DNA of 64,000 nt, taken from positions 28,569 to 92,568 of the forward strand of contig CAJFCJ010000005.1 of assembly GCA_904063045.1 (NCBI GenBank), in the 5' to 3' direction. This document shows, in pieces, positions 40 through 64,000 of the stretch (positions are counted from its first letter, which is position 1; each line of letters begins with the position of its first letter). The notes under the pieces are model-generated. The model made no database searches and had not been told where the DNA came from. It was given only the letters and a program-made list of their open reading frames with translations. The translations under genes and the position numbers were made by a program. Source of the stretch: Dimorphilus gyrociliatus. Taxonomy: Eukaryota; Animalia; Annelida.

Positions 40-693
40 TTACCCTAAACAACTTGATAGGCCTGATAGACAAAATTTCGACATTGCATATAAAAGAATC
101 TTATTTTGTATCCGTCCAGCAAGGGATGACATGTTAATAATTCTACCATTCGCCATATGTAACAAATGGAGAAATTTAAATGACATTATTGCTGGAGCAA
201 CCGCATTAACGTTTAAAACTTCCCTAACTTTATGCGGTAGAATCGTCTCCGGCGAACCAAGATTGTGTCCAATAATTCCAGCATTATTCACTAAAGCGTA
301 TAGACCATTTTCACCAACTTTTTGACTAACAAATTCCCTAAGTTGTTCAATTTCATCGTCATTCGTTACGTTCAGAATGAAAGTTGTCAATCTATTTGAA
401 GAGGATAACGATAAATCTTTAGCTCCTTTTTCAGTTAGGCAAGTAGCTATAACATTCATTCCTTTATTGTCAAGACGTTTCGCCAATAGATTTCCAAATC
501 CTGAAATTTTTTTTTTTTGTCTGTTCATTACGAAGGAAATAAACAATTTCAACTTACCAGTATCACATCCGGTTATTAAAACGTATCTATTTTTAATATT
601 CCTTATATAAATAGATCTTATAAAATGTTCAATACACCTTAATAGTATTATTAGTAGTAAAATACTTGTTAAAAATCCTAAAGTTGTAAGCAT
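40..693 (-). CDS. Short-chain dehydrogenase/reductase (retinol/17-beta-HSD-like, SDR9C type); 3' end continues outside the window
   Basis: N-terminal hydrophobic anchor; VLITGCDTG|FGNLLA after removing a 57-nt in-frame GTAAG..CAG intron (501-557); LVNNAG, INMSS and YAMSK (YxxxK) motifs; probable donor near 43. Confidence 0.9.
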   Translation of the reverse strand: MLTTLGFLTSILLLIILLRCIEHFIRSIYIRNIKNRYVLITGCDTGKLKLFISFVMNRQKKKISGFGNLLAKRLDNKGMNVIATCLTEKGAKDLSLSSSNRLTTFILNVTNDDEIEQLREFVSQKVGENGLYALVNNAGIIGHNLGSPETILPHKVREVLNVNAVAPAIMSFKFLHLLHMANGRIINMSSLAGRIQNKILLYAMSKFCLSGLSSCLG

Positions 694-1048
694 TTTGCTG
701 TGTTAATAATTTAAAATCCCAATTTTGAATCTTCCACACAAACTCAAACCATTAATATAAAATATATATTGTATTTGTATAAAAAAATTTCTTATCTATA
801 AATCAGTTATTTATGTAATGAATTGCTCATAATGGGTGAGATAAGAGAGTGAGGTAGAAAAAGGGGAGGGGAGGCAGGAGGCAGAGGCAACAGTTGTTTC
901 TAATGCGCAGACAACATATGATGCTCATTTTATAAATTATAAATCAACAAAATCAATTTATAACGTCACCTAGTGATCTAGTTTTAGTACAAATAAAACA
1001 ACCCCTCCAATTGCCATAAGCAACTTGGATCAATACTAAAAAAACAAA
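694..1048. promoter_or_regulatory. Short divergent intergenic region (candidate bidirectional promoter)
   Basis: 355 bp between the oppositely oriented ATGs of the SDR and LRR genes; purine-rich GA tract at ~835-890. No motif proven. Confidence 0.3.
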
Positions 1049-30907: not shown

Positions 30908-32830
30908 CTAGAATTTTAGCGTTTTTGATGGAAATTGGTATTTTATTTTTTTCTGAATGGCTTTAGTCAATTGGCAGTTGCTTAAATCAAGCTTTATCAG
31001 TGTATTTAGAGATCCTTCTAAACTTTCACATATAGCTTTCCATCCTCTCGTTAAATTTATATTATCTGACAAGAGAACCTCTGTTATTTGTGAACAATTC
31101 TGCAATAAATTTCCAATAGTTTTACATATAGAATCATCTATATTGCTAGCTTGAAAACCAATAATTTTTAAAGAATGAGATGACCTTTCTAGACCTTCAC
31201 ATATTTTTAAAATTCCATCTTTACCATTATTATTCCAGCCAATAAGAATTTCTTCGATATTTTGACAATCCATTAATAATTCTCCTATACAGATAAACAT
31301 TTTCTCATCTAATTGACAATCTTCAAAGCATATAAACTTGAGTGTTGCAGATGAGTTTCTAACTGCATTGCATATTTCAAATATTTCTGGTTCATTCCAT
31401 TCATTCATCTCAAAGAATAAAGCTTCCAATTTGATGCATTGTTTTAATAGTCCCACAAAATTCTTACAATAATTAGAATCAATATTACCCTTAGCAATAT
31501 CTAAAATTTTTAAAGATAATGAAGACTTTTGAAGTTTTTCAAAAATACAGTCCAATTCAAAATCTTGATTATAACCAAGATATATTCTTTCTATATTTGG
31601 GCATTTGTCCAACAAATTTCTAAAACACTTACTAACACTTTCATTTAAATTACAGTTTTCAATGTCAATAATATGTAAAGTTTTACATGATTTTTCCAAT
31701 CCTTCACATATCTTTTTAAATCCATTTCCCATATTGTTATTTCTCTTTAGATAAATATTTTCAATTTGAGAACACTTTGCCAATAAATTGCCAATATGTA
31801 TACACATATTTTCATTTAGGCAACACCTTTCAAGGTCAATGTCTTTTAGAGTAGTTGAAGAATATTCAAGACCTTTTACAATACTCAATAGACCATTTTC
31901 TCCAATATCTGGATTTTCTTGTAGATAGATTTCCTCAATTGTACAGCAGCTTTTTAAAAGATTTCCCAAGGCAATAGCCATGTTTTCATTCAATTGACAA
32001 AAATTTAAATATAGATATTTTAAAGTTTTACAAGAATATAAGAGTCCATCAAAAATTTCAAGTAAACCATATTGCAACTTTGAATTTTCTTCTAGAAATA
32101 TTCCAGTAATTTGTGAACAATTTTCTAATAAATTTTTCAAACCAAGGCAAATACTTTCATCTAAATTGCATTTTTTTAATGGAATGAATGTTAAATTTGT
32201 ACAAGATTTTTGAAGACTTTCACAAATATTTAAAAATCCATTACCCATATTTACATTTTCACCAAGATTAATTTTTTCAATTTTTGAACATTTGAATAAT
32301 AAATCTCTTATTGAATTGCATTTACTTTCATTCAAATTACAATTGTACACACTGATCTTTTTCAGAGTAGTTGTAGATTGTTCAAGTCCTTTACAAATAC
32401 TGTACAATCCTTTTCCCATATTTGGATTTCCTCCTACATAAATTTCTTCAAGTACATTAAAATTTGACAACATTTTACCAAACTTTTCACAAGTTCCTTT
32501 ATCAAAATTACAATTGGTAATATCAAGATATTTTACTGTTTTTGAAGATTGTTGAAGTTCTTTAATAATTATTAAAAAATTGCTTTCAATACCATGATTT
32601 TCAGATAGATTAACCTGTTCAATTTTATAGCAATGACTAAACAGTTCAGCAATACTTAAGCAATTCTCCTTATTTAAATTATAACCTTGAAAATTAACAG
32701 TTTTCAAGGTATTAGAAGAATTTTGAAGTACTTGAAAAATTCCAGTATATCCATTAGTCAATTTTTTCAACTTACGACCTTTATTTTTAGACGACATTTT
32801 TTTGGAGGTATCAGCAACTATAATTCCCAT
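30908..32830 (-). CDS. Intronless RI-like LRR-only protein, 640 aa; paralog of 1049-2959 in opposite orientation
   Basis: Colinear with the 636-aa ORF (NGY..F..L.NSSNT..T..FQGYNLN; FELFSxCxxIExVNLSxN; IGWNxxGKxGILKICEGLE; C-terminal KI.xQFxSK). True start may be MSSKNK at 32797. Confidence 0.9.
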   Translation of the reverse strand: MGIIVADTSKKMSSKNKGRKLKKLTNGYTGIFQVLQNSSNTLKTVNFQGYNLNKENCLSIAELFSHCYKIEQVNLSENHGIESNFLIIIKELQQSSKTVKYLDITNCNFDKGTCEKFGKMLSNFNVLEEIYVGGNPNMGKGLYSICKGLEQSTTTLKKISVYNCNLNESKCNSIRDLLFKCSKIEKINLGENVNMGNGFLNICESLQKSCTNLTFIPLKKCNLDESICLGLKNLLENCSQITGIFLEENSKLQYGLLEIFDGLLYSCKTLKYLYLNFCQLNENMAIALGNLLKSCCTIEEIYLQENPDIGENGLLSIVKGLEYSSTTLKDIDLERCCLNENMCIHIGNLLAKCSQIENIYLKRNNNMGNGFKKICEGLEKSCKTLHIIDIENCNLNESVSKCFRNLLDKCPNIERIYLGYNQDFELDCIFEKLQKSSLSLKILDIAKGNIDSNYCKNFVGLLKQCIKLEALFFEMNEWNEPEIFEICNAVRNSSATLKFICFEDCQLDEKMFICIGELLMDCQNIEEILIGWNNNGKDGILKICEGLERSSHSLKIIGFQASNIDDSICKTIGNLLQNCSQITEVLLSDNINLTRGWKAICESLEGSLNTLIKLDLSNCQLTKAIQKKIKYQFPSKTLKF

Positions 32831-34969: not shown

Positions 34970-35871
34970 ACTTACTCTGCTATTGAAATTCCATATAGTT
35001 ATTTGCTTAAGTAATTCATCTTGAATAAACCATTTAAAGTAAATGTTTGTTTAATGGTTTGAGTAGAACCAGTAATGTTGTAATTTGCAAAGGCATAAAT
35101 TGGCCAAGAAAGAGCAATACACCAGCCCAAAATCTAATTTTCAAATATTTCATTATAACTGTTTTCAACCAGTCCCATATTTTACTAAAGGTTGCCAAAT
35201 TATCAAACTGTCAATGTTAAGAAGAAAAAGGTTTGTTCCAATGGAGGTTGTTTTCAGATGATCTCAGATTACTCGATTGAGATATTGTAGTATTTCTTAA
35301 TAATTTTGTTTCAAATTTTATTTACAATACTCTCTGTTCTCTCACCCAATTTTGTTACATTCACTCCCTTTTATACTTCGCTAGCATTGCTTAACTAGGT
35401 ATTTGTGCTCATCAGTGTTTTTTTACCTATTTATGACCTGAGATATCACTCAATGAGACTGAGTTAAAAACCCTGACCATGACTCATAATCATTCTCTCA
35501 TACATTTGCTGACTAATAATAACACATAACATACAAACGTTCTGTTCAGTTGGAATGGAACAGTGAGAATATATATACTTGAAGTTTTCCTCTGATTTCC
35601 AATCATCACTTCACAGTTGGCAAACTATCTAGTTCGTACTTATATTTAGTAACAGGATGTTGCAAGGTTTAACATTTAGCAAGGTTAATTGAATTATAAC
35701 TCGGTCAAACATTAACTGGTACTTATAGATGAACCTTCACGATGACTAATCAAGATCTATGTTTGGCCATATGTTATTGCCTTTTCTTATGCAGGTTTTA
35801 AGAGGTAGATATACTGTATAAGTTGCACATAGTAAAATAATTTAAGCATAAAGTATAATGAAAGTTATACA
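34970..35871. mobile_element. Diverged solo LTR of family A, 3' end inverted, with an internal insertion
   Basis: 35185-35871 matches LTR-A on the minus strand (start TGTATAAC at 35871); 34970-35121 matches the LTR-A 3' end on the plus strand (ends GCAATACA); 4-bp TSD CCAG at 35122-35125 and (reverse complement) 35872-35875. Confidence 0.75.
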
Positions 35872-39203: not shown

Positions 39204-39874
39204 ATGAGTTGGCAATGCACAGTAGTCAGATGGGAGAATTAGCTATAATTAAACAATGGGACCGGTCGAAAACGGCCATAAATGAAATATTTGAAAGTTA
39301 GATTTCAGCCTGGGAAATGGTTAGGAGGAATAAGATAACTGTTGATATGTTCTTAGGAGGGTCCCATCTAAGGGTCAGGGGTATTCAAAAAGGTTAGGCA
39401 AAAACAAGGGCTGGGTTAGGGTTAGGGTTAGGGTAAAACCATACATTTATGGCCGTTTTCTACCACATCCTTAAACAATGTTCATCAATAGACTCAACAG
39501 AAGTGGTTTGTGACATAAGAGTGATAAAAAAGGATAACAAATGTTCTCAATTGTTACTTGTCACCATGAACAACCTGCTTTTCCAAGTGGAACCATTTAC
39601 TCATGTTTTACAGCAAGTCAATCTGGAAGAAATTACCTATAATGAGTGTAAGTCAAACAAGTTGTCCTACAAGACAACTCACAACCCATTAAATCCTTTA
39701 AGAAACCAACCAATGAAAGACAAAACTCTGCTATTGAACTCTCATATTACTACTTGCTTAAATATTATTATTTCGAATAAACCATTTTAATTTAAACATT
39801 TGTTTAAAGTTTTGAGTAAAACCAGTATTGTTATAACTTGAAAATGTATAAATTTGCCAAGCAATAGCAGTACA
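39204..39874 (+). mobile_element. Internally deleted derivative of the env-bearing retroelement (env fragment fused to LTR-A 3' end)
   Basis: 39204-39727 matches env 55778-56078; it then joins LTR sequence (CTCTGCTATTGAACTCTC..GCAGTACA, ending 39874). Confidence 0.85.
39258..39470. mobile_element. MULE-type MITE, 213 bp, inserted in the env fragment
   Basis: TSD TTAAACAAT (39249-39257, 39471-39479); the empty site is seen in env at ~55822; TIR GAAAACGGCCATAAATG; internal (TTAGGG)3. Confidence 0.9.
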
Positions 39875-41218
39875 CTATACCTCCATTTTTCTTCATTTTC
39901 TATATAATTTTTACCAGAATTATAGATGTCAGCACTGCGTATTCCTAAAAAATACACTGAAGATAGAAAATCACTAAATGCTACATTAAAACGATATAAT
40001 CTGTGCACTTAAAAATATCAACATAATAATATTTAGACTTTAGATATTATAGAACTATAGAATGACTTTTATTTCGTAGCAATTATAATTGTGGAGCTTT
40101 TGAAAGATGTTTATTAGATTCTAGAACTTTAAAAAGGCCTTTGTTTCGTAGGAAACATATTCTATGACCAAAACAGATGTTGCATTATGCAATTAACAAT
40201 GGAACAAACAATATAGAAAAAATGCATGTCAAACATGTTTCATCTTATTCAAAAACAGATGCGGAAGAGGCAGGCTTGTTTTTGCACTGCCACATGTTAG
40301 CCATAAGTGATGCAATAGTTTTTCATATCTTTGTTATATGTGCATTGTGAGACTGTTACATTTCAACTTTGTAATCTTTTGACCAAGTGAACCCAAGCTT
40401 TGGTAAATGTATAAAAGGAAATACATTTCCCCAGTTTGTCAGTTCAATTCTGTAACTGTCAGCTGGTTGTTTAAACTTGCTTATTTAGAACTAGAAACTC
40501 ATTGACTCAATACATATTCTTTAAATGAAGTACTGGCATTCTGCTGATTAATTTCTACCAAAATTTCATTTTTTAAGACTACTTGTGGACGAATTTGAAA
40601 GGTTCTATGTGGTGTGAGTACTTTGGTGAGTTGATAAATGATTGAAAAGGACGAATACTGTTCAGAAGAAACAGAAATACCTACAATTACAATACAACAA
40701 AGTACATAATCTAAATGTTTGTTTATCTTTTAATACAATGTGAGAAAGTGCAGCTATGTTGCCAAAATACCAAAATTTTTTTTAATTGTTTTTTAAATAA
40801 AAAATCTAGAGTGAAATTTTCAAACCTCAATATTTTAATCATCTCCAGAGACAATCATTTAAACTATCAAAAACGTTTTAAGCTGAATACAATATCCTTC
40901 ACTATCACATTTATATTGATCAGGTGAGCATTGAGTACTTAAACAGGAAAGACTTGTTCTCTCTACAGAAAAACTAGGATTTGCATAAATATTTCTATTT
41001 CTATCTATTTGAAGTGTGCATGACTCATTAGAAATTCTAATGGCAGAACATAAAGGATTTTGTGAGCAAGAAGTCTCATCACTACCATTAACACAGTTTG
41101 GTATTCCATTACATTCAAGAGATCTTGAAATGCAACTATCTAGGCACAAATTTGTTTTTGAAATGTACAAGCTGCAAGTAAAAACAATTAGATCATTTAG
41201 ATTTGTGAAAGATAACAA
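39875..41218 (-). pseudogene. GRL101/RXFP-like LDLa-(LRR)-7TM receptor remnant
   Basis: LDLa CISRSLECNGIPNCVNGSDETSC and CSPDQYKCDSEGYCI; TM1 end GNIAALSHIVLKDKQTFR|LYRFNVAFSDFLSSVYFLGIRSADIYNSGKNYIENEEKWRYS, split by two LTR-derived insertions. Confidence 0.7.
40002..40706 (+). mobile_element. Solo LTR of family B, 705 bp
   Basis: Starts TGTGCAC, ends AAGTACA; 5-bp TSD TAATC (39997-40001, 40707-40711); the empty site is reconstructed by the paralogous sequence at ~41915-41940. Confidence 0.8.
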
Positions 41219-46727: not shown

Positions 46728-47326
46728 TGTACTGCTCTTGCTGGCAAAATCTATGCGTTTGCAAGTTATAACAATACTGGTTCTACTCGAACCTTTAAAC
46801 AAATGTTTAAATTAAAACAGTTTATTCGCAATAATAATACTTAAGCAAGTAACAATATGAGAGTTTGATAGCAGAGTAGATAGTTTGCAAAAGCAGGTTG
46901 CCAAATTACCAAACTGTCTTCTAATGTTGAGGAGTAGATGGATGGTTCCAGTGGAGGTTGTTTCCAGATGATTTTCCTAGGTCCTTGGGTCCAGATGGAA
47001 GCTGCATGCCGAATGAGAATAGTGAGGATTTATATACTTTGAGGTTTGCCTCTGACATCCAATCATCACTTTACAGTTGCCGAAATGTGTAGTTCATATT
47101 TATGTTTAGTAAGAGGATGTTACAAGGTTGAACATTTAGGAAGGTTAATTGAATTATAACTTGGCCAAACCTTTATTGGTAATTAAAGATGAGCCTTCAA
47201 GCTGACTAATCAGACTTATGTTTGGCCAATGTTATAGCATTTTCTTGCCTAGGTTTTAAGATGTACATGTATATGTTGCATAAAATAATAGAGTTCAAGC
47301 ATGTAAAATATAACCAAAGTTGTACA
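46728..47326 (-). repeat. 3' LTR (family A), 599 bp
   Basis: TGTACAAC...GCAGTACA termini; similarity to the right copy stops exactly at 46728. Confidence 0.85.
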
Positions 47327-47327
47327 A

Positions 47328-47341
47328 CTTCCCCCTTCTTT
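47328..47341 (-). other. Polypurine tract
   Basis: AAAGAAGGGGGAAG immediately before the LTR start. Confidence 0.8.
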
Positions 47342-47357
47342 GTGAAGATGAGTCCCT

Positions 47358-50300
47358 TCATCTTGATTTAATGAGAATTACAGGTGGTTGTTCTTCTTCA
47401 TTAGTTTGATGTTGACTAAAGCTACAACTTTGTTTCATTAGTTTTGGGTTTTCAGGAGAGTTATCTGTGCTCTCACTTGGGGTAGTGGTTTCTTCTCTTT
47501 GTTTTCTTCTTCCAATAATATAGTTGAAAATGATGATACATACCATTGACACTACAATACTCAAACAAATATTTTGTATGATAACATAAAGTGTTTTCCC
47601 AGGTTTATAGTACCAACTATGGAAAAACTGTTTAATTCCAGATAAATTGGGTACAATGCCATTTTTCTCTGCAACAGTGACCATGTTATCATACCTTGCC
47701 TGCTTCTGTTCCAGTGAACTGATAACTTGCTTAATTTTTGAGTGCTGGTATGCAATATCCTTCTTTACCCCATGGTGGAGTAGATCAGCTAATCTGGCAA
47801 TTTCAATTTTTGGTTCAGAAAGGTGATTGTGGATATGTAACTGCATGGATTTTGCAGACACAGTGTGAAATTTGCATCCTCTTTCTGAATAATACACATA
47901 CGTTTTGTCTTTCATTGGTTGGTTTCTTATAGGATTTAATGGGTTGTGAGTTGTTTTGTAGAATAACTTGTTAGACTTACACTCATTATAGGTAATCTCT
48001 TCAGGATTGACTTGCTGTAAAACATGAGTAGCTGGTTCTACTTGGAAAAGCAGGTTGTTCATGGTGACAAGTAAAAATTGAGAACATTTGTTATTCTTTT
48101 TTATTATGCTTAAGTCACAAACTACTTCTGTTGAGGCTATTGGTGAACATTGTTTAATTATAGCTAATTCTCCCATCTGACTACTGTGCATTCCCAACTC
48201 ATTTGTTAACACTGTGGTCAATTGAGGATCCAAATTTGCTAGTAATGCCATCATCCTGCTTCTTTGAACAAATTGATTGCAGAGAAGACTTGACAGCTGT
48301 TGGGTAAACTTTTTTAAATTCTTAAAATTTGAATCAATGCCATGTAGTAAGGTAGATGTTTGGGCAGCTTCTCTCATTTCCAATGGGAATTTGTGGTATG
48401 GGTTTTTACTTATATTATGTTTCAGTTTTGCTTCCTTCTTCATCTGCTTTTTAGCCATTCGCATGTGTAGAGTAAAATAAATTCCTTCATGGGTAATCTT
48501 AAATTCTCTGGCTGGTGGTCCTTTATACCATATGCCCAATGTTGGTAATACCTTCTTTTTGATTCTTTTCTCACTGTATACATATTTTGAAATTGTAACA
48601 GATTGTCTTGTTGCCCTTGTCCAATTGACTGCTTGCAGCATTTCTTGGATGTAATAGTTATCCAGCTCCCAGTAAGATGGACTAATGGGTTGTTGTAGAT
48701 GATATATCACAACTTCCTTGAGTGTGCCTTTATTTCTCATTAGTTTATACTTTGTGTTTGTTTCTCTATACCATTGGTTAAGACTTGGTAAGGGGTTGTT
48801 TCGCTTGTATAGTATAATTTGTTCTTTCACTTTATTGGGATAGTTTAATAGTCATTTTTCTTCATTTTTTCCAATCTTCTGATATTGTAGCAAATTGTAT
48901 AGGTGTTCCTTGCTTGTTTCCTGTATTAAACTCTGTTTCTCCAGTGGTACTAGTACTTTTGTTCCAGGACCACCAATTCCATCAATGAACTTATCTTGAT
49001 AAGGGATGTCCAGAATAGAATACCCTGGACAAGAATAGTGACCAGCAAATTTGATACAACTAATTCTGTTGCTAATTTTTGTCCATGGTGATTGTTGCCC
49101 AAGTGTGTAATTATTCTTGAGGTTTCTAGAGACAATAATTGCCTCTTCTGTCTCACAATAGGACTGCCCTGGTAAACAATCTTCCAGGTAGTCCAGATTA
49201 GTTGTAATTTTCATATTAGGAGGTTGCCAATATGCTTTGCCAAACTGGATAATTGTGGTGTATTCCAGCACCTTGGTAGTTGTTGGCCATGTGTAGGCAG
49301 CAGGAAACTGATCTTGGTGGATCCAAGTGTTTCTTTTCACCATTAAAGGTTTTCCTTGAAAAGATTGTTTGTCTTTTACCATCTGTCTGCATTGATCATG
49401 AGTTACTTTAATAACTGAGTTAACAATTCTCCTCTTCTTTGCTCCAAAGAAATAGTAAGTGTAAAAGTTAGTTCTTAGATACACTTGACATTTTACTGCT
49501 CTTGTTTCAATTTCTTCCAAGTTCAATTCATAGATATCAGCTGTAATTGTCTTGATTTCTTCTGATTCTATATTACAAGTTGGCTCATCTGCTAGATCAA
49601 ATGCTTGGCTTGGTAGTTGGTTAGAACAAAAGTATAACAGTGGTTTAAATGTTAAGGTAATGTTTGCACTTGTAACATGTGCACCTTGGTAGGATGGTTT
49701 CAGAACTGTTATTGAGTGGATGCAGCCACAGATCACCATTACAGTCATCACTAGTGGAAGCCACAACATCTGTTTCATGTTAGCTCTTCCTGTGTTGGCT
49801 ATAGTTGAATGGTTGAAAATTTTGTGTTGTTGTTCCACTCTGATAGTTATTCCATCTTCTAACTCTATATATTGTGGTTCCACTTCTTGTTGGGAATCTA
49901 ATTGTTCAGAGATGATTTTAGTCTCATCTAAAAATATGACTGACTCATTGTCTGTGTCACTTGTATTTTCTTTCTCATCTTGGGATGAATCTACCACTAT
50001 GATGGACTCATCATCTGAATGGGTTATGTCAATAATTTCACCTTCAATAGTTGTTGACTCATTATCAGAATGGGTTATATCAATAATTTCACTTTCAATA
50101 ATTATTGACTCATTGTCTGAACTAGATATTTCATCTTCTCTATCAGAGATAATGTTTGCCTCTGAATCTGTATTTTGATCCAGTTCATTATTTGTTTCTG
50201 TGTCATCACTTTCAGATGAGCTTGAAGGTTCATTGAGACTGTAATTACTGTCTGTTTCGAAAGTATTGCTTGTGTCATAACCAGTATCAGAATTAGTAAC

Positions 50301-51119
50301 TTCCATCTCTGAGTCATCACTATCTGAGCTTTCTGATGAAGAGTCATGCTGTCCCATCATGGCTATAGTGACTTTGTTTAGTTGAGGTTGCCTTATTCTT
50401 TCAGCCAGGTTCCCTTTCCTTCTATCAAATTTGAGAGAACACTGTTTAGCTTCAAAATTGAGGTTTGCTCCCACAGTTTGAAGGAAATCACAACCAAGTA
50501 TTATTGCTATGTCTAGATTTTCCATAATGATAAATTCTTGTTCCATACTTTCTCCAGCAAATTGGATATTCAGCTTTACGCTTCCTTTTTGCTTTAAAGC
50601 TTTCCCATCAGCTGAAGTTATAATTGGTAAGCCAATTGTTTCTTTATCCATAATTGTAACATCCATTAACTTGATTTCTTTTTCAGTAATAAAGGATCTC
50701 AATGCTCCTGTATCACACAAGGCAATGACTTCTCTGCCTTTGTGATTCTTCAAATGGAATTGGAAGTCATTTCTTCCTTCTACCTGAGAAAGATATTGGA
50801 GGTGTGTTATTTCCTTCTCCACAAGGTGAAAGATTGTTGTTGTTTCTTTCCCTGTTTCCAACTTATTAGATTCATTGGCTAGTCTTAATCTGCTACCATG
50901 TACAAACTTGCATGTATTATCATCCATTTGTATTTCATATATCCACTTTTGATGATTGAATTTTGTTATTCGGTATGGGCCTAACCATTTTAAAGAAGGG
51001 ATTTTTGTTATTGCAATTCTTGCAGCATCATTTCTTAAGAATACTTCATCATCAACCTCAAAATATTTTGGAAGATTGAGATTTCTATTCTTTCTTTCCC
51101 TATATTGTTCTTTTGCCAT
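47358..51119 (-). pseudogene. Integrase C-term / aspartic protease / acidic spacer / envelope polyprotein frame, 1253 codons with one internal TGA (48852-48854)
   Basis: ORFs 48852-51119 and 47358-48830 are in the same frame; the TGA corresponds to CGA in the right copy. KWLGPYRI (GPY/F), LCDTGA..IILGCDFL (retropepsin), signal-like MLWLPLVMTVMVICGC, TM NICLSIVVSMVCIIIFNYII. Confidence 0.85.
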
Positions 51120-51542
51120 GATGGATTTACAGAAGGCTGTAGCTCTTAACTGTACTAATTGCTGCTGGTGATTGAATACAAATAGTACATTTTGTTTCAG
51201 GAGAGGTAGTATGCATTGTTACATCAATCAGTGTTCTTGTGCTGGTGCCAAAAAGAAGTTCCTGGGGTGGTAGTCTTGTACTTCCTACAGGTGATTGATT
51301 CAAAAATGCTTGAATCAAGGGTAGGTTTGCAACCCAGTTATGCTGATTTTCTTCCACCACTAATTTATTGATTTCCTTCCTCACTTCTCTATTTCTTCTT
51401 CACTAGTCCATTGCTCTGGCTTCTATAAGCTGTTGTTTGGATTTTCTCAATACCTAATACTCCATAACTCTTTAAAAGCTTTACCAACAAAGTTTCTTCC
51501 TTGATCTGTCACATTTGTTTTGGAATTCCAAAATGGGAAAAA

Positions 51543-51803
51543 NNNNNNNNNNNNNNNNNNNNNNNNNNNNNNNNNNNNNNNNNNNNNNNNNNNNNNNNNN
51601 NNNNNNNNNNNNNNNNNNNNNNNNNNNNNNNNNNNNNNNNNNNNNNNNNNNNNNNNNNNNNNNNNNNNNNNNNNNNNNNNNNNNNNNNNNNNNNNNNNNN
51701 NNNNNNNNNNNNNNNNNNNNNNNNNNNNNNNNNNNNNNNNNNNNNNNNNNNNNNNNNNNNNNNNNNNNNNNNNNNNNNNNNNNNNNNNNNNNNNNNNNNN
51801 NNN
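51543..51803. other. Assembly gap (261 N)
   Basis: Run of N; must hide or misrepresent both elements' 5' halves. Confidence 1.
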
Positions 51804-51989
51804 CAGTATGAACATACACCAGAGTTAACTTTTGTAGCTACCAGTGAAACAGTGAAGAGAAAATGATTTGTCTTCTGTTGACTTACAGTCAGAGCAAGAA
51901 AAAGATGTGAATTTAAAATCAATTAAAGAATATTTAACATTGGATGGTCAGCTACCTATTCCTTATTTTGGAACTTTTACACCTTCATA

Positions 51990-53100
51990 ATGGAGATGTT
52001 TGTTCACAAGGAAATGATCTGGATTATCCTTGAAGAAAGAAACATTCTGGTTTTACCTGACCATTTGATGCTAACTCTGCTCCCTAAATTCCATAAAAAT
52101 AAAATTCACAATCACCATGGACCCAGAATGACATTACAAATAATTACAAAGACCTTTTGGCACCCAAAATTAAAGATTATGATTGAGAATTCAATAAAGG
52201 ATTGCACTTTGTGTGAACAAATGAATGGTAGGAGTAGAGTATACCCTTTGGTAGAAACCTTTCACCCTGCATCACCAATGGAGTTGGTAGCCATGGATAT
52301 AATGGGACCCTTACCCATGGTTAAGTCATACAGATTCATACTTGTGATAGTGGATCATTTCAGTAGATACACAGTTTTATATGCACTCAAACAGCAAACC
52401 AGTAAAGAAATTGCAAACCTTCTTTTCAACAGATTTTTCCCATTTTTGGAATTCCAAAACAAATGTTGACAGATCAAGGAAGAAACTTTGTTGGTAAAGC
52501 TTTTAAAGAGTTTATGAAGGTATTAGGTATTGAGAAAATCCAAACAACAGCTTATAGAAGCCAGAGCAATGGACTAGTTGAACGAAGAAATAGAGAAGTG
52601 AGGAAGGAAATCAATAAATTAGTGGTGGAAGAAAATCAGCATAACTGGGTTGCAAACCTACCCTTGATTCAAGCATTTTTGAATCAATCACCTGTAGGAA
52701 GTACAAGACTACCACCCCAGGAACTTCTTTTTGGCACCAGCACAAGAACACTGATTGATGTAACAATGCATACTACCTCTCCTGAAACAAATGTACTATT
52801 TGTATTCAATCACCAGCAGCAATTAGTACAGTTAAGAGCTACAGCCTTCTGTAAATCCATCATGGCAAAAGAACAATATAGGGAAAGAAAGAATAGAAAT
52901 CTCAATCTTCCAAAATATTTTGAGGTTGATGATGAAGTATTCTTAAGAAATGATGCTGCAAGAATTGCAATAACAAAAATCCCTTCTTTAAAATGGTTAG
53001 GCCCATACCGAATAACAAAAGTCAATCATCAAAAGTGGATATATGAAATACAAATGGATGATAATACATGCAAGTTGGTACATGGTAGCAGATTAAGACT
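51990..53100 (+). pseudogene. Gypsy-type integrase (HHCC zinc domain, DDE core, GPY/F-SH3 tail), one homopolymer frameshift near 52445
   Basis: H..HHG..FWHPKL..CTLC; VAMDIMGPLP; IVDHFSR; TDQGRNF; SNGLVERRN; WLGPYRI..VHGSRLR. Confidence 0.9.
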
Positions 53101-53199
53101 AGCCAATGAATCTAATAAGTTGGAAACAGGGAAAGAAGCAACAACAATCTTTCACCTTGTGGAGAAGGAAATAACACACCTCCAATATCTTTCTCAGGT

Positions 53200-53560
53200 A
53201 GAAGGAAGAAATGACTTCCAATTCCGTTTGAAGAATCAAAAAGGCCAAGAAGTCATTGCCTTGTGTGACACAGGAGCATTGAGATCCTTTATTACTGAAA
53301 AGAAATCAAGTTAATGGATGTTACAATTATGGATAAAGAAACAATTGGCTTACCAATTATAACTTCAGCTGATGGGAAAGCTTTAAACCAAAAAGGAAGC
53401 GTAAAGCTGAATATCCAATTTGCTGGAGAAAGTATGGAACAAGAATTTATAGTTATGGAAAATCTAGACATAGCAATAATACTTGGTTGTGATTTCCTAC
53501 AAACTGTGGGAGCAAACCTCAATTTTTAAGCTAAACAGTGTTCTCTCAAATTTGATAGAA
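53200..53560 (+). pseudogene. Retropepsin-type aspartic protease downstream of integrase (frameshift ~53300 and TAA 53527 in this copy; intact at ~50410-50770 in the left copy)
   Basis: VIALCDTGALRSFI..ITSADGKAL...G.VKLNIQF..EFIVMENLDIAIILGCDFL. Confidence 0.85.
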
Positions 53561-54201
53561 GGAAAGGGAACCTGGCTGAAAGAATAAGGCAACCTCAACT
53601 AAACAAAGTCACTATAGCCATGATGGGACAGCATGACTCTTCATCAGAAAGCTCAGATAGTGATGACTCAGAGATGGAAGTTACTAATTCTGATACTGGT
53701 TATGACACAAGCAATACTTTCAAAACAGACAGTAATTACAGTCTCAATAAACCTTCAAGCTCATCTGAAAGTGATGACACAGAAACAAATAATGAACTGG
53801 ATCAAAATACAGATTCAGAGGCAAACATTATCTCTGATAGAGAAGATGAAATATCTAGTTCAGACGATGAGTCAATAATTATTGAAAGCGAAATTATTGA
53901 TATAACCCATTCTGATAATGAGTCAATAATTATTGAAGGTGAAATTATTGACATAACCCATTCGGATAATGAGTCCCTCATAGTGGTAGATTCATCCCAA
54001 GATGAGAAAGAAAATACAAGTGACACAGACAATGAGTCAGTCATATTTTTAGATGAGACTAAAATCATCTCTGAACAATTAGATTCCCAACAAGAAGTGG
54101 AACCACAATATATAGAGTTAGAAGATGGAATAACTATCAGAGTGGAACAACAACACAAAACTTTCAACCATTCAACTATAGCCAACACAGGAAGAGCTAA
54201 C

Positions 54202-56622
54202 ATGAAACAGATGTTGTGGCTTCCACTAGTGATGACTGTAATGGTGATCTGTGGCTGCATCCACTCAATAACAGTCCCAAAACCATCCTACCAAGGTGCC
54301 CATGTTACAAGTGCAAACATTACCTTAACATTTAAACCACCGTTATACTTTTGTTCTAACCAACTACCAAGCCAGGCATTTGATCTAGCAGATGAGCCAA
54401 CTTGTAATATAGAATCACAAGAAACCAAGACAATTACAGCTGATATCTATGAATTGAACTTGGAAGAAATTGAAACAAGAGCAGTAAAATGTCAAGTGTA
54501 TCTAAGAACTAATTTTTACACTTACTATTTCTTTGGAGCAAAGAAGAGGAGGATTGTTAACTCAGTTATCAAAGTAACTCATGATCAATGCAGACAGATG
54601 ATAAAAGACAAACGATCTTTTCAAGGAAAACCTTTAATGGTGAAAAGAAACACTTGGATCCACCAAGATCAGTTTCCTGCTGCCTACACATGGCCAACAA
54701 CTACCAAGGTGCTGGAATACACCACAATTATCCAGTTTGGCAAAGCATATTGGCAACCTCCTAATATGAAAATTACAACTAATCTGGACTACCTGGAAGA
54801 TTGTTTACCAGGGCAGTCCTATTGTGAGACAGAAGAGGCAATTATTGTCTTTAGAAACCTCAAGAATAATTACACACTTGGGCAACAATCACCATGGATA
54901 AAAATTAGCAACAGAATTAGTTGTATCAAATTTGCTGGTCACTATTCTTGTCCAGGGTATTCTATTCTGGACATCCCTTATCAAGATAAGTTTATTGATG
55001 GAATTGGTGGTCCTGGAACAAAAGTACTAGTACCACTGGAGGAACAGAGTTTAATACAGGAAACAAGCAAGGAACACCTATACAATTTGCTACAATATCA
55101 GAAGATTGGCAAAAATGAAGAAAAACGACTATTAAACTATCCCAATAAAGTTAAAGAACAAATTATACTATACAAGCGAAACAACCCCTTACCAAGTCTT
55201 AACCAATGGTACAGAGAAACAAACACAAAGTATAAACTAATGAGAAATAAAGGCACACTCAAGGAAGTTGTGATATATCATCTACAACAACCCATTAGTC
55301 CAGCTTACTGGGAGCTGGATAACTATTATATCCAAGAAATGCTGCAAGCAGTCAATTGGACAAGGGCAACAAGACAATCTGTCACGATTTCAAAATATGT
55401 ATACAGTGAGAAAAGAATCAAAAAGAAGGTATTACCAACATTGGGCATATGGTATAAAGGACCACCAGCCAGAGAATTTAAGATTACCTATGAAGGAATT
55501 TATTTTACTCTACACATGAGAATGGCTAAAAAGCAGATGAAGAAGGAAGCAAAACTGAAACATAAGATAAGTAAAAACCCATACCACAAATTCCCATTGG
55601 AAATGAGAGAAGCTGCCCAAACATCTACCTTACTACATGGTATTGATTCAAATTTTAAGAATTTAAAAAAGTTTACCCAACAGCTGTCAAGTCTTCTCTG
55701 CAATCAATTTGTTCAAAGAAGCAGAATGATGGCATTACTAGCAAATTTGGATCCTCAATTGACCACAGTGTTAACAAATGAGTTGGGAATGCACAGTAGT
55801 CAGATGGGAGAATTAGCTATAATTAAACAATGTTCACCAATAGCCTCAACAGAAGTAGTTTGTGACTTAAGCATGATAAAAAAGAATAACAAATGTTCTC
55901 AATTTTTACTTGTCACCATGAACAACCTGCTTTTCCAAGTAGAACCAGTTACTCATGTTTTACAGCAAGTCAATCCTGAAGAGATTACCTATAATGAGTG
56001 TAAGTCTAACAAGTTATTCTACAAAACAACTCACAACCCATTAAATCCTATAAGAAACCAACCAATGAAAGACAAAACGTATGTGTATTATTCAGAAAGA
56101 GGATGCAGATTTCACACTGTGTCTGCAAAATCCATGCAGTTACATATCCACAATCACCTTTCTGAACCAAAAATTGAAATTGCCAGATTAGCTGATCTAC
56201 TCCACCATGGGGTAAAGAAGGATATTGCATACCAGCACTCAAAAATTAAGCAAGTTATCAGTTCACTGGAACAGAAGCAGGCAAGGTATGATAACATGGT
56301 CACTGTTGCAGAGAAAAATGGCATTGTACCCAATTTATCTGGAATTAAAAAGTTTTTCCATAGTTGGTACTATAAACCTGGGAAAACACTTTATGTTATC
56401 ATATGAAATATTTGTTTGAGTATTGTAGTGTCAATGGTATGTATCATCATTTTCAACTATATTATTGGAAGAAGAAAACAAAGAGAAGAAATTGCTACCC
56501 CAAGTGAGAGCACAGATAACTCTCCTGAAAACCCAAAACTAATGAAACAAAGTTGTAGCTTTAGTCAACATCAAACTAATGAAGAAGAACAACCACCTGT
56601 AATTCTCATTAAATCAAGATGA
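54202..56622 (+). pseudogene. Envelope-like glycoprotein, probably class III fusogen (gB/chuvirus-G-like); premature TGA at 56404 before the TM
   Basis: Hydrophobic signal; Cys-spaced ectodomain (YFC..PTC..AVKC..YFFGAK..DQC..YTW..DC..SYC); LLCNQ..LDP..IKQC..KC..VEP..EC; N-glycan sequons NIT, NYT, NWT, NLS; TM plus GRRKQR. Fold assignment is pattern-based inference. Confidence 0.7.
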
Positions 56623-56653
56623 AGGGACTCATCTTCACAAAGAAGGGGGAAGT

Positions 56654-57288
56654 TGTACAACTTTGGTTATATTTTACATGCTTGAACTCTATTATTTTAT
56701 GCAACATATACATGTACATCTTAAAACCTACGCAAGAAAATGCTATAACATTGGCCAAACATAAGTCTGATTAGTCAGCTTGAAGGTTCATCTTTAATTA
56801 CCAATAAAGGTTTGGCCAAGTTATAATTTAATTAACTTGCCTAGGGTGTGGCCAAGTTATAATTCAATTAACCTTCCTAAATGTTGAACCTTGTAACATC
56901 CTGTTACTAAAGATAAATATGAACTACACATTTTGGCAACTGTAAAGTGATGATTGGATGTCAGAGACAAACCTCAAAGTATATAAATCCTCATTATTCT
57001 CATTTGGCATGCAGCTTCCATCTGGACCCAAGGACCTGGGAAAATCATCTGGAAACAACCTCCACTGGAACCATCCATCTACTCCTCAACATTGGAAGAC
57101 AGTTTGGTAATTTGGCAACCTGCTATTACAAACTATCTACTCTGCTATTGAACTCTCATATTGTTACTTGCTTAAGTATTATTATTGCGAATAAACCATT
57201 TTAATTTAAACATTTGTTTAAAGGTTCGAGTAGAACCAGTATTGTTATAACTTGCAAACGCATAGATTTTGCCAGCAAGAGCAGTACA
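56654..57288 (+). repeat. 3' LTR (family A), 635 bp, with a 36-bp tandem duplication
   Basis: TGTACAAC...GCAGTACA; AATAAA at ~57190; duplication 56813-56878 absent from the left LTR. Confidence 0.85.
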
Positions 57289-58100: not shown

Positions 58101-60218
58101 TATGGGCAGATGGAACAGTTGAATTTATTCAGTAGGGCGATAATAGATATACTAGTACTGTTTCACGTTAGCATTCAAGCAAAAATTTTCAATTGTATAA
58201 AAATACTTCGTCAGCATTTATTGATAATTTTTTGTGTTGTATAGCTCCTTGTATTGATATTTTATTGATGATTATTGCTATAATATCTGTTCTGGATAAG
58301 AGGAATAGAATGAGGTAAAGGGTAACAACTGCCAGTAAAGAGAATAATTGTAGAATCCTAAATTCACAAACAATATGCAATTTTCACAGGCCTATTATAT
58401 TTTGGCTAACAGCAGTTGTTACTTTTATATTTATTATCTAAGTGGAAAAAAATTAGGAAGGTTTTCTTCAAGATCATCTATTGTAGGAAGAACAAGAAAG
58501 GGCCAACAAACACCAAACACTCCCTCTTAGGTTGTTAAAAGTGGTTGACTACTAACATGTTGTGTTCAATGTTGGGATATGATTCAGCCAATAAAGACAT
58601 CAATATACAGCTGATTAAACAGGATAATAAATCTTTGACCACTCAAAAGAACTACACATGAATAAAACTCGCTCAAACAGGACAAGAATTCCTTTATTAA
58701 TCAAAACCTATATAAAGATGTAGCTGTTCATTATTGCAATAGTCATCTGGATGATATGTCTTTTTAGGTGTTGTATATAAGGGGTTGAGATAAAACGGCC
58801 CAGTAGGCTAAAATTTACTGTAAGTTTTTTGGGCATTTCTAGAAAAATGTTCATGTTAATATTTTTCAGTTCATATAGGGCTGAACTGAGGGTTAGGAAG
58901 CATAAAATGAAAACAATCTTCTTAATTTATGGTTGTAGTTGGATGCCATGAACAATTCGCTTTCCAAAACCAATCTGAGTAAATAGCAGCAATGTTCAAG
59001 TAATTGTCGTGTGAGCTAGTAACGTCACAATATATAGATTTTGGTTCTCTTCAAAGCTACAATACTGTAATAAACTTAAATATTTAAATGGTTCAGCATC
59101 TTTCTCAATGCTTACTCATGTGATAAATGATAGTGAAAGTGATAGAACATTAGAATAGCATGAGTAAAGGACAGTTGACCCCCATCCAGACAGTTGACCC
59201 CAGGACAGTTGACCCCCTTCTGGACAGTTGACCCCTGGACAGTTGACCCCTGGACAGTTAACCCCTGGACAGTTGACCCCCTTCCAGAAAGTTGACCCCC
59301 CTCTGGACAGTTGACCCCTAAGATGGTTAATTCTTAGACTGTTGAACATTTTGACTTGTAAAACTGTCAATCTCATAAAGTTATTGTGTACTTCAATGAA
59401 AATCATCTTTTTTGAAAGAATTGAAAGTTGATAAGCGCTTACTTTTAATTAATGTTTAAATATATTGTTAAAATTGTTAGATTTTTGGATAAAAATGGCT
59501 TAGAAACCAAGCTCTCATATCATAAATCATTGATCTTACAATGAAATTTGAAGAATAGACTAATAATAATAAAATAAACTAAAATAATGAATTTCATATT
59601 CATCAAAATTTGTATTTCAAAAATTATGGAAAATACAAGTTGGAAATTTCTCTTAATACATCATCAGCTGTTTTATCAGCATTTGCAAATTCTTCCCAAA
59701 CTAAACATATTTTACCTTGCAATTCCTTGTATTTCACTTTCTGTATCCTACATATCTTTTTCTCTGACAACAACCTTTCATAAAGGGCAACAACCTTTGA
59801 TTCATGATTTAACTTCAAAATTAAATTGTAAAAATTAATGCTTTGTCCACAGTGACTGTTTAGTCTATGATGGCAGGATTCTACATCATTGTTGGTTCTG
59901 ATGGTCACTTGGTAGATTGACCAATTATTTATTTTCCAAATATTATTTCTGATAAAGATTCTTTCAAAATAATCCAAAAAATCCAGAAATAAATTATTCT
60001 CAACAAGTTCTCCTTTAATAGTTTTGAATTGTCTTTTAATGATGTTAGCAGGTAAGAATGGTAAAGACATTATTTTTCTAAGCATTTCACCTCCATAATT
60101 TTTTTCTTTCTAATCTTTTACAAATCCAAGATGCTTCAATAAATAAAAAACTTTTGTAATTCTCAAATGACTATTTATACAATGAATACTTGTATTTTCT
60201 TAAAAACTGCATTTTTAA

Positions 60219-62887
60219 GGCTTAGGGTCAGAACGCCCCTGGTCAGTACGCCCCAGGTCAGAACGCCCCAATTTTGGGTCAGAACGCCCCATTCTTGATT
60301 TCGAATGCCCCACTCATGAGTCAGAACGCCCCACTGATTTTTGAAGAACATAATATTTTTTAATGCTGTACTTATTAAATTAAAAAAAGTCAATTGAATA
60401 TAAAAATATATATGCATAATGTATTTTTTGTCTTAAAGTACAAAAGCTTAAACAAATATAATAAGTGATCACAAAAAAAGAAATAATTTTTCAAGCAATG
60501 TTCAAGTCAATTAAACCCTTTAAGAGATTATCTAAACTTAATTCTCTTACTTCAAACTTCTTCCACAACTCAAAGATAATATCCTGCAAATCTTTATATT
60601 TATTCTTCTGATTCTGTCTCATTTTATTTTCCACCAACATATCCTCATAAACTTCAATAAGGCTGCTTTCTCTATGAAGTTCAGTGATAAGAGTATAAAA
60701 GTTTTCATTGCTTTTCAAATTTTGATTGATTCTTGTGTGCCAAGACTCTACATGATTATTTGTACGAACTATTAATTTATAAACTGACCAATTTTCTGGT
60801 TTCCAAATATTGCTTTCAATGTAAGTAGATTCCATATACTCAAGAAGATCAGCATATAAATTCAGTTCCAAAAGTTCCTCTTTAATTTGATAAAACTTTT
60901 GTTTGATGAATGATGCTGGTAAGTATGCTAGACACATTAGTTTTCTTAACACATTTCCTTTATAACCTTTCATTTTATAGTCCTTGATGTATCCTAATTT
61001 CTAAAAAGAAAATTTGTATTTGTTAATTTCTTAATTTCACAAATTAAATCTGTAACAGAATTGTTATAATTACTTTAATTTACCTGTATGTTTTTAAGAA
61101 TTGCTTGTTTAAAATGAAAAGCACATCCTTGTAGATCAGAATCAACAAAAGCATTTTTTAAAGATATCCAAAGAGCTTTTTCAAAATCAAGAACAAACTT
61201 TTTTGGGCTTTTTCCATCTATTAAGATTTTTAACTCCTTGTAAAGAAAAATATATCTTTAGAATTTTTACTCAAATATTTACTTTAGAAAGCCAACCTCA
61301 AATATAAATGAATAATGTTTCTTCTTCTTTCCTGTCATGAGGACAAACATTAAAGGAACTTGTTTATATTCACCTTCTTTTCTTATAAATCCATGAATTG
61401 TAAACAATTGGTAAAAAGGTTTTCTCACAATTTTAAATGTGGCATCAATAAACCATATCTTACAATGTTTCAATAATTTAATTTGATGGTCAGTTGCAAA
61501 CATCATGTTTCGGCTTTTCTTCCCTTTTATATCTTTTAAGAAAAAATTATCTGGAATTTCATTTAAATTTAATTCAAACATAATGTTTTCTGGGTGCTTT
61601 GGTCTGGCACCTTCTCTGTATCTATTAGCAGATCTTTTCATGACATCAATGCTTGGAATATGAGAAATATCCTTTCTGAACTTCAGACTGATATCTTCTG
61701 CAATTCTTTTACCAGATTTGTCTTTATCAATAATTGCAGCTTCCTTTAAATTTAACCTTGCTTCAATAATTTTTCTCATATCATTTTTCTCTCTTTTGTG
61801 AATGTGATTAGAATTTTTCAAAATGAACTTTAAATCTTTTTGAATTACAGATGCAAGACATGGTGATTTTTTAGTTCTTTGACTACATTTCCAGGTAATG
61901 GTTGTTTCACTTGATCTTTTTACAGTATAAGTAAAATTATTGTGAAGAAGAATATCTTTTCCTTTTCTGCTCCCATTCTTAAATATTTCAAAATCATGTT
62001 TTAAATTATCATTTAGACAAAGCTCTCTTGTATCATTAAAAGAAGATTCATTATTTATATCAATTCTTCTTACAACTGGACTATTTTCTGTAACAATTTT
62101 AGCAGGTTGATGTTGATCTTCTCTTGAAATTCCATCATTATCAATATCAATATCTTTATCACAACTCTCCATTCCATTATTCCCTGGAGTACTTGAAACA
62201 TCAGGGAAATTAGATTCAAAGTCAAAAGATAACCTCAGCTATAGTAAAACATTAAATAGTTTTTTTAACAGATATTTGTTAAATATTTTGTACCTGTTCG
62301 GAACTTGAACTTTCACTAACAGTTTCATTTCCAAATACTTTTGAACATGTTGGTGATTTTTGTTTTCCAGCTTTTTTATTTTAACAATTAGCTTTTTGTT
62401 TTTTATATTAAAACAGTCTATACAATAATCTGCATCTGAGGAAATGGTTAAATAGAAAAGAAATATTAAAGAATAAAATCTTACTATTTGAACATTTAGC
62501 ATGGTAAAAGTGCCTACATAATTTGCATCTAAACTTCTTTTGAGTCCAATGAAACTTCTTCATACATTTCCAACAAGTTTTTAAATTCATCCTCCTTTTT
62601 TCAGTGAGACATTAACAGCAAAAAAATTAATTATACTAAGATGAATTATATTTAAGCAACACAATTTCTGAGAATAAACTGATAAAAAAAAAACTGGTAA
62701 AAATATTTATAATAACTGGTATATAAGAATATTTTTCTCTCAGCATTGTTTTCTATAATTCTCTAAAGAGAGTGGGGCGTTCTGACTCATGAGTGGGGCG
62801 TTCAAAATCAAGAATGGGGCGTTCTGACCCAAAATTGGGGCGTTCTGACCTGGGGCGTACTGACCTGGGGCGTTCTGACCCGACCCC
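60219..62887 (-). mobile_element. Inner MULE, 2669 bp, apparently intact
   Basis: 9-bp TSD CATTTTTAA (60210-60218, 62888-62896); ~115-bp near-identical TIRs built from GGTCAGAACGCCCC units. Confidence 0.92.
60491..62590 (-). CDS. Spliced PHD-FLYWCH-MULE DDE transposase
   Basis: CWKC..CKLC..HAKC|..CIDC (PHD); GKDILLHNNFTY..TWKCSQR..C (FLYWCH); WFIDATF, VLDFE, GCAFHF, TNNHVESWH; about five exons with GT-AG introns and no stop seen in the exon frames (exon 2 donor uncertain). Confidence 0.8.
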
Positions 62888-64000
62888 CATTTTTAAAATG
62901 ATAAACACATCCTTGAATTGTTGTTGGAAACATTTCTTCAATGGCCTTCCATAAGGCTGCCTCAAAGTCAACTACTATTTTTTTTGGTTGATGACCTTCT
63001 AAAACATCAGCTAACACCTGAAATATATGTAGTGTAATTCATGAAAATGTGATATATATATATTTACCTTGAAAACAGCTTTATAAGATTTTTTCTTTCT
63101 TTGGCTCATAAAAGCATAAACTAGAGGAACTTGCTTATAATTTCCATTTTTCTTTATGAAAGCATGAACTGTGAAAAGCTGTTGAAATGGTCCTGAAATC
63201 ACTTTGAAGGTTCCATCCATAAATAATATTTTTGCTTGTTTCAACAATTCGATTTGATGATTATTACCAAAAATGATATATCTTGCATCATCCTTTTTAA
63301 TATCCTTTATTAAAAAATTTTCAGGAACAAAATCATTGTGCAAAGTAAATGAAAGATCAGCTGGATTGCTAGGTCTCAATTTTCCTTTGTATCTGTCTGC
63401 TGTTCTTCTCATGCTTTCAATAAGTGGAAGTTTCTTACTTTGATCTAAAAATTTCAAAAGAGTAATCTCTGTAATTTTTTTTCCTGAGTTATTGAAATTT
63501 TTTGTTGAATCTCTGCTTTTACAACTTTTCTCATTTGTGCTTCAACTTCATTGGCACTTGTTTTTGGATGTGAATGTTGCCCTTTTTCTAAAAAAATGTG
63601 ATCCTTTTTGTAGAACAATGGCTGGACATTTGTACTTTCCTGTTCTTTTACTACAGCACCAAGTTGTTTGTCTGTCAGATTTCTTCTTCACTGCAAAAGT
63701 AAAGCCATTTTTTGTCAATAGATCTTTGCCTCTTCTTGATCCATCGTTGATAATTTCAAAGCCTTGCTTTTCTGACTGTTTTGTTGATTGACTGGGTGTC
63801 ACCTCAAAAGAACTTTCATCAGAAACATTGATAGAATTTGTGAGATTCTTTGGCTCATAATTGTCATCAGATGATTCTTCAGCATCTATTGAACTTTCAT
63901 GTGAAAAATCAAATGAAAGCTCAAGCTAAAGGTTAAATTTCAAATTTTAAATAATAATAAATTAAATGTCATTCTAAAACACTAACCTCTTGATTATCAA

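Follow-up and report, generated by a model that had tools for sequence, protein, structure and literature searches.

An intact-looking retropepsin between the integrase and a predicted class III envelope of a Ty3/gypsy errantivirus in Dimorphilus gyrociliatus

Results

Two inverted 3' halves of one LTR retroelement

The window analysed here, 64,000 nt of contig CAJFCJ010000005.1 of the annelid Dimorphilus gyrociliatus (positions 28,569-92,568, forward strand), carries two inverted copies of one long terminal repeat (LTR) retroelement, at 46728-51542 on the minus strand (left copy) and at 51804-57288 on the plus strand (right copy), which are 97.4% identical over 4857 aligned bases. Read 5' to 3', both copies show the order integrase, retropepsin, acidic spacer, signal peptide, envelope (Env) ectodomain, transmembrane (TM) anchor, cytoplasmic tail, polypurine tract (PPT) and LTR. 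A first-pass annotation, made from the sequence alone, had placed an element with a protease behind its integrase and fused to Env at 47358..56622; the domain layout it gave stands, but the element extends further on both sides, to 46728 and 57288. Both copies are 5'-incomplete 3' halves, and the 5' half of the element lies outside the window. They are separated by an assembly gap of 261 N (51543..51803, unstranded), which joins them 5' end to 5' end and is likely mis-sized or misjoined: the scaffold join is doubtful because 261 N are far too few for both missing halves, given that the right copy holds 4849 nt of internal sequence and the published copy of the most likely family 8048 nt (PMC13524379).

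In the left copy, a single frame of 1286 codons runs from 51218 to 47358 (minus strand) with one premature stop at 48852-48854, as the first-pass annotation had stated for the stretch from the GPY/F tail of the integrase to Env. The left integrase core contains frame shifts, so the frame is continuous only from the integrase tail onwards. The right copy has frame shifts near 51847, 51863, 51983, 52433 and 53297 and stops at 53527 and 56404; between integrase tail and LTR, the breaks lie at different sites in the two copies. A third, internally deleted copy at 39204..39877 (plus strand) retains two pieces of env (39204-39258, matching at 98%, and 39471-39726, at 93%) and the LTR end (39725-39877, at 90%).

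A retropepsin behind the integrase

The left copy retains the frame-shifted end of the integrase core and the GPY/F tail (50781..51542, minus strand; GPY at aa 80-82 of the frame), as recognised by translation, Pfam and tblastn. The right copy holds, with frame shifts, a bridge region, an H2C2 finger, the core and the GPY/F tail (51804..53229, plus strand; translation and profile matches), with Pfam matches to H2C2 (E 8.9e-10) and rve. The integrase thus comprises the H2C2 finger, DDE core and GPY/F tail of errantiviruses, and its nearest relatives are Ty3/gypsy integrases.

Directly behind it lies a retropepsin, at 50370..50780 (minus strand) in the left copy and at 53230..53610 (plus strand) in the right copy, where it is broken near 53297 and at 53527. 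The left copy shows the motifs LCDTGA (catalytic Asp169, codon 50712-50714; codon 53267-53269 in the right copy) and ILGCDFL (Gly242, a hydrophobic-hydrophobic-Gly motif near 50495). Scanned in isolation, the domain exceeds the gathering scores of four Pfam families, RVP_2 (32.2 against 20.3, E 1.1e-7), RVP, gag-asp_proteas and Asp_protease_2, and aligns with a profile of 77 Ty3/gypsy proteases at 95.6% probability (hhalign). A spacing of 73 residues separates the catalytic Asp from the hydrophobic-hydrophobic-Gly motif; 72 of the 77 profile members, with both residues present, span 65-74, a range that comes from a protease set of mostly Gmr1-type elements. The nearest solved relative is ASPRV1, a weak match (E 0.03). 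By motif and profile, the domain is an intact-looking retropepsin (peptidase A2), and the complete protease that had been proposed at this position is confirmed in both respects, with H2C2 and rve upstream in the right copy. No reverse transcriptase (RT) was found between integrase and 3' LTR, or anywhere in the window, by tblastn and profile scan, and Pfam found no chromodomain after the integrase, only Integrase_p58_C, below cut-off, in its tail.

Spacer, envelope and LTR ends

The protease is followed by an acidic spacer of about 190 aa, rich in Ser and Thr and containing short internal repeats, which was assigned by composition in the left copy (49779..50348, minus strand; 31% D/E and 30% S/T over aa 291-450) and by translation in the right copy (53611..54201, plus strand). 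Its pN/pS between the copies is 0.98 (8 non-synonymous and 2 synonymous changes), against 0.27 for the Env ectodomain (17 and 16).

In the left copy (all minus strand), an internal signal peptide begins at a Met (49713..49778, end approximate; translation and hydropathy, with the hydrophobic signal at aa 482-508) and leads into an ectodomain with 14 cysteines (47604..49712), interrupted by the stop at 48852-48854 and assigned to class III on fold evidence from the right copy. It is followed by the TM anchor (47505..47597, aa 1208-1238; hydropathy) and by the cytoplasmic tail with its stop (47358..47504; translation). In the right copy, signal peptide, class III ectodomain, TM anchor and tail occupy 54202..56622 (plus strand), with the ectodomain open to 56403 and a stop at 56404 just before the TM anchor. 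The Cys-rich ectodomain, internal signal peptide and TM anchor ahead of PPT and LTR therefore stand as described in the first-pass annotation. The PPT lies at 47328..47341 (14 nt, minus strand) and 56639..56652 (plus strand), recognised from sequence, and the 3' LTR at 46728..47326 (minus strand, 599 nt) and 56654..57288 (plus strand, 635 nt), both TG..CA, the left LTR being the shorter. A primer-binding site (PBS) adjoins the LTR end in assembled contigs from three runs, X1, X2 and X3, one mismatch from the tRNA-Ser end listed in the consulted part of PMC13524379. The element accordingly has the features of a Ty3/gypsy errantivirus: a TG..CA LTR, PPT and PBS, and an Env with signal peptide, fusogen ectodomain and TM anchor. 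Older LTR-related fragments at 34973-35121 and 35554-35871 are 73-82% identical to the LTR of the element.

Env on its own matched neither Pfam nor the PDB, and a search of 1.84 billion representatives returned 12 relatives at 68% down to 21% identity, one of which (P0004) passes the Pfam family Rhabdo_glycop_FD. A profile of Env with 15 related sequences gave matches in the fusion domain to four glycoprotein chains (E 0.002-0.003), among them 8a1e, which is rabies G, and in the central helix to five glycoprotein B (gB) chains (E about 0.01); over all these matches, E was 0.002-0.015. The predicted structure, with a mean predicted local distance difference test score (pLDDT) of 52, is confident mainly at about residues 60-230; a single-sequence fold (pLDDT 33) was unusable. 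The model resembles herpesvirus gB and rhabdo/chu-like glycoproteins in Foldseek, at low template-modelling scores, and in a wide structure search of 48161 chains the ten best rows were all class III. The structural comparisons gave Z 9.7 for herpes simplex virus (HSV) gB (rmsd, the root-mean-square deviation, 8.8; 207 aligned), Z 9.1 for human cytomegalovirus gB (rmsd 6.7; 182 aligned) and Z 8.2 for Chandipura G (rmsd 7.3; 171 aligned). ESM features agree with this assignment, at low recognition. Profile and predicted fold both place Env among the class III (gB/rhabdovirus G-type) fusogens, which supports the earlier proposal of a viral-type envelope in an invertebrate host. A class II, phlebovirus-like Gc does not fit the predicted class III fold; the sole phlebovirus match was sub-threshold and in the TM region (E 0.02).

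Word-seeded protein searches gave no matches, whether the query was Env or the integrase tail joined to the protease (1380-3940 aa), which is weak evidence; no locus was found for Env and integrase among metagenome contigs, or for P0012 and P0004 among viral contigs, and none of six window open reading frames (ORFs) is identical to an entry of the protein collection. P0012, P0014, P0015 and P0016, each of 631 aa and nearly identical to one another, are class III-like glycoproteins that have a signal peptide of their own and are encoded on contigs of 7.4-9.6 kb; an RNA virus or another env-bearing element is a possible source.

The domain order is inherited

Both copies stop at the identical LTR base and then continue into different flanks. 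Since the flanks differ, the two copies are separate insertions, and since both insertions have it, the order integrase, protease, Env is inherited. Integrase core, protease and Env start are also spanned by single contigs in three of four runs (X1, 52456-55208; X2, 52335-55562; X3, 51805-55627); these three runs belong to one study, which possibly includes the source of the window, and the fourth (X5) to a second study, whose contigs span integrase to spacer with one skip. At the two integrase-to-Env breaks of the right copy, the run contigs that cover them read differently, and none of the 11 other listed differences creates a stop. One X3 contig extends 1751 bases further upstream.

Two further observations concern these contigs. 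The X5 contigs skip 53295-53353, 55976-56034, 56901-56972 and 56907-56972, each reading GT..AG on the strand opposite the element, which suggests, if X5 is RNA, that a spliced transcript runs antisense through protease, env and LTR. Some X1 and X2 contigs match only 53403-53513 (protease) and 54094-54155 (spacer end) and then continue unlike the window, a hint that a second subfamily, diverged from this one, shares the protease-spacer-env layout.

The element is most likely Dingle

The main Ty3/gypsy family of D. gyrociliatus is Dingle (Dinophilidae Gypsy-like elements), which has a gB-like Env (PMC7854359, in the parts consulted). The element of the window is most likely Dingle, catalogued as Annelida_Polychaeta_Dgyr_errantivirus_1; the evidence is strong but circumstantial, resting on PBS, LTR length, Env type and a gene model and not on alignment to the published copy. 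Both names are classed as Ty3/gypsy (PMC7854359, PMC13524379). In supplementary file 1 of PMC13524379, Dgyr_errantivirus_1 has an HSV/gB-type Env, 7 copies and LTRs of 631 and 636 nt (635 nt here), and the 12-nt PBS listed for it is the PBS found next to the LTR end in X1-X3, a string that occurs 26 times in the table of 1512 elements. It is the only HSV-type element in the 45 annelid rows of part 1 of that table, and its published copy is placed at CAJFCJ010000063.1, 1669-10983, beside six sister copies. A D. gyrociliatus gene model that contains pieces of the family, described below, fits the Dingle host at species level. The lineage is therefore not an undescribed one: family and envelope type are most likely already published.

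The published description departs from the window behind the integrase. Dgyr_errantivirus_1 is labelled GAG-POL with a chromodomain called there (HHpred, AlphaFold; PMC13524379), where we find a retropepsin and no Pfam chromodomain. The main texts on Dingle and Dgyr_errantivirus_1 describe no intact-looking protease between integrase and Env; outside the figures, the texts of PMC7854359 and PMC13524379 mention no post-integrase protease, and the word protease occurs once in each, in another sense.

A protease-like domain before RT in a related gene model

Among the 12 Env relatives is P0010 (DgyrCDS14789 of D. gyrociliatus), which combines an RT N-terminus, 35 residues of env (77% aa identity) and an LTR translation (68% aa identity over 71). 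In ESM features, its residues 1-130, which adjoin the RT start, resemble retropepsin clusters (0.90-0.94), and the ten named matches of the ESM retrieval all share a family or clan; the RT start that follows is well conserved. An LLG motif stands at residues 79-81, and Asp16 lies 65 residues before its glycine but reads D-D-F; D[ST]G is absent from residues 1-200. A homodimer prediction of residues 1-115 scored 0.00, with the fold uncertain. The residues before RT in P0010 may therefore be a degenerate protease-like domain that lacks D[ST]G. Beside the two explanations of the first-pass annotation, a second, Env-dedicated protease or a permuted pol order, this suggests a third option, in which a degenerate domain precedes RT and an intact-looking protease follows the integrase.

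Other features of the window

Three related single ORFs of 476-640 aa encode leucine-rich-repeat (LRR) proteins with weak or no Pfam matches (1049-2959 and 19131-20561, plus strand; 30908-32830, minus strand). Pieces of an LRR-Roc (ROCO-type) gene lie in two overlapping frames at 23242-24725 (minus strand; Roc E 3e-22), and a short-chain dehydrogenase exon at 40-702 (minus strand; adh_short E 1e-19). FLYWCH and MULE transposase fragments occupy 61279-62559 (minus strand), and stretches related to them recur at 9682-9855 and 63083-63256; nearby lie short tandem and inverted repeats (59155-59318, 60225-60344/62762-62881 and 8611-8667/10944-11014).

Discussion

We propose that the locus holds the 3' halves of a Ty3/gypsy errantivirus, most likely Dingle, in which an intact-looking retropepsin lies in one frame between integrase and class III Env and is likely the main working protease of the element; to this reading as a whole we assign a probability of about 0.5. 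A bolder version, which we consider tentative, is that the working protease of Dingle left its place at the head of Pol for the Pol-Env junction while a dead protease-like domain was kept before RT, so that Gag-Pol maturation became tied to the membrane of Env by an alphavirus-like logic that is not known from LTR retroelements. That the activity moved rather than doubled would follow from the loss of D[ST]G in the protease-like domain before RT, as seen in one related gene model, and the post-integrase protease would be the main one if that domain is dead.

Retropepsins need to dimerise to be active, and signal peptidase releases proteins targeted to the endoplasmic reticulum (ER). On this basis, we propose the following hypothetical sequence, in which (i) the internal signal peptide would send Env into the ER, where, as the topology implies, signal peptidase would free it; (ii) Pol, protease and acidic spacer would remain cytosolic, tied to the membrane by the leftover signal; (iii) crowding on the flexible tether of about 190 spacer residues would favour the retropepsin dimer; and (iv) the dimerised protease would cut Pol (and Gag) loose next to Env. 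The protease would thus likely serve to cut the enzymes of the element free from the membrane anchor of Env. It would not be the releaser of the glycoprotein, because it lies on the cytosolic side of the internal signal peptide, and the Env-dedicated protease put forward in the first-pass annotation is not supported by this topology. Env may also be made alone from Met 54202, since this signal-peptide Met has an A at -3 and an acceptor-like run lies near 54046. In the alphavirus structural polyprotein and at the flavivirus capsid anchor, a cytosolic viral protease beside an internal signal separates cytosolic proteins from an envelope encoded in the same frame. Those enzymes are serine proteases of RNA viruses, and the likeness is one of working only; no homology is claimed.

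Several points weigh against the proposal. The description of the post-integrase enzyme as the main working protease depends on one stitched gene model, because the 5' half of the element lies outside the window; P0010 is pieced together from exons of a diverged copy, and its opening exon could derive from a different element. Pfam finds no protease in its domain before RT, hhalign gives a probability of 0.2% with a score of 10.8, equal to the shuffle median of 10.2, and the ESM matches share 84-115 of 256 features where true family members typically share 170. The first Met of P0010 could have a D[ST]G ahead of it, though only at a spacing of more than 80, outside the 65-74 range. The protease differs between the copies by 6 non-synonymous and 3 synonymous changes, too few to judge selection, and the main X5 contig omits 59 nt inside it. 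No relative with DNA context outside D. gyrociliatus was found in contig scans. Finally, the published label GAG-POL, and not GAG-POL-ENV, implies that Pol and Env were annotated apart in the published copy.

Foremost among the alternatives is that two proteases are active, a canonical one before RT that processes Gag-Pol, with the post-integrase one confined to trimming Pol off the signal anchor of Env. In its favour, P0010 does seem to carry a protease-like domain ahead of RT, the model may begin inside that domain and hide an upstream D[ST]G, and all intact Ty3 homologues examined have their protease N-terminal to the integrase. We nevertheless consider this explanation unlikely, as the first 200 residues of P0010 hold no D[ST]G, the site expected from the spacing reads D-D-F, and sequence-level methods detect no protease there although the RT start right behind is well conserved. 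A pure permutation, gag-RT-RH-IN-PR-env (RH, RNase H; IN, integrase; PR, protease), with no protease remnant before RT and with the P0010 domain unrelated or derived from another element, appears somewhat less probable again. The space that remains for leader, gag and whatever else precedes the bridge region, roughly 3200 nt (8048 - 4849), would suit it, as does the failure of profile methods to find a protease in P0010; yet ESM features retrieve exactly the expected family at that position, and P0010 does have the LLG motif, preceded by an Asp at the usual distance.

Improbable in our view is that the post-integrase protease is a passenger that arrived with an env cassette, with Env translated from the signal-peptide Met of a separate spliced message and the fusion having little function. 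The sequence context of that Met and the acceptor-like run near 54046 are compatible with such a message, several distant Env relatives (P0004, P0012) start with their own Met and signal, the spacer drifts neutrally, and Env stands apart from GAG-POL in the published annotation. A passenger would be expected to decay, however, whereas the protease retains its two motifs with intact spacing, and the left copy keeps an open frame over about 330 codons of protease and spacer. An assembly artefact or one-off chimera, which the first-pass annotation had allowed for and which the doubtful scaffold join might suggest, is largely refuted: each contig arm contains the complete junction, two insertions with different flanks share it, and single contigs from three of four runs read across it.

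To our knowledge, a protease encoded before the integrase is a rule shared by the known pol orders, of which PR-RT-RH-IN is the usual one in Ty3/gypsy elements. We surveyed the best 120 of 240 integrase homologues, which are only about 26-36% identical, detecting proteases with a custom hidden Markov model and RT by a simple motif. None of the 120 has a protease after the integrase, and in all 82 with a detected protease it precedes the integrase; in 67 of the 120 the integrase precedes the RT motif, and 38 more show protease then integrase with no RT motif detected. The order integrase, protease, Env was thus not met again in this set. Most of the nearest integrases found belong to Gmr1-type Ty3/gypsy elements, whose own order is PR-IN-RT-RH; here, in contrast, the integrase is followed by protease, Env and LTR. 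Membership of the Gmr1 type is ruled out, as no RT lies between integrase and 3' LTR. The possibility that this order is routine for a described clade found no support either: no description of a second, additional, duplicated or post-integrase protease was found in the literature, in a search that lay mostly outside subscription papers.

The HSV/gB-type metazoan errantiviruses share a Ty3/gypsy Pol with class III Env but are described, in the consulted part of PMC13524379, with the orders GAG-POL-ENV, GAG-ENV-POL and ENV-GAG-POL and with Pol as PRO-RT-RH-IN; no protease between integrase and Env is reported for them there. Atlas virus and other nematode belpaoviruses have a single Gag-Pol-Env ORF with an RNA-virus-type glycoprotein behind Pol, but they differ in their BEL/Pao Pol and class II phlebovirus-like Gn-Gc, and no post-integrase protease is reported in the consulted text (PMC9094657 and its 2026 preprint). 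Extra ORFs behind the integrase that are not proteases are described in rotifers (PMC5408684) and in Cer1 (PMC10309623), as far as the consulted parts of these papers go. Of the unusual architecture claimed at the outset, the post-integrase protease therefore holds up, while Pol-Env fusion alone does not set the element apart, given Atlas virus and the POL-ENV or GAG-POL-ENV labels of two other errantiviruses in the part of PMC13524379 consulted.

If our proposal is true, a multi-copy, recently amplified family with an intact-looking protease between integrase and Env would break the rule that the protease precedes the integrase. It would mean that envelope capture can rewire polyprotein processing, and would offer a small case of protease relocation that leaves a pseudo-enzyme behind. 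The annotation of the published element would be corrected, and the 1512 catalogued errantiviruses would merit a rescan between integrase and Env.

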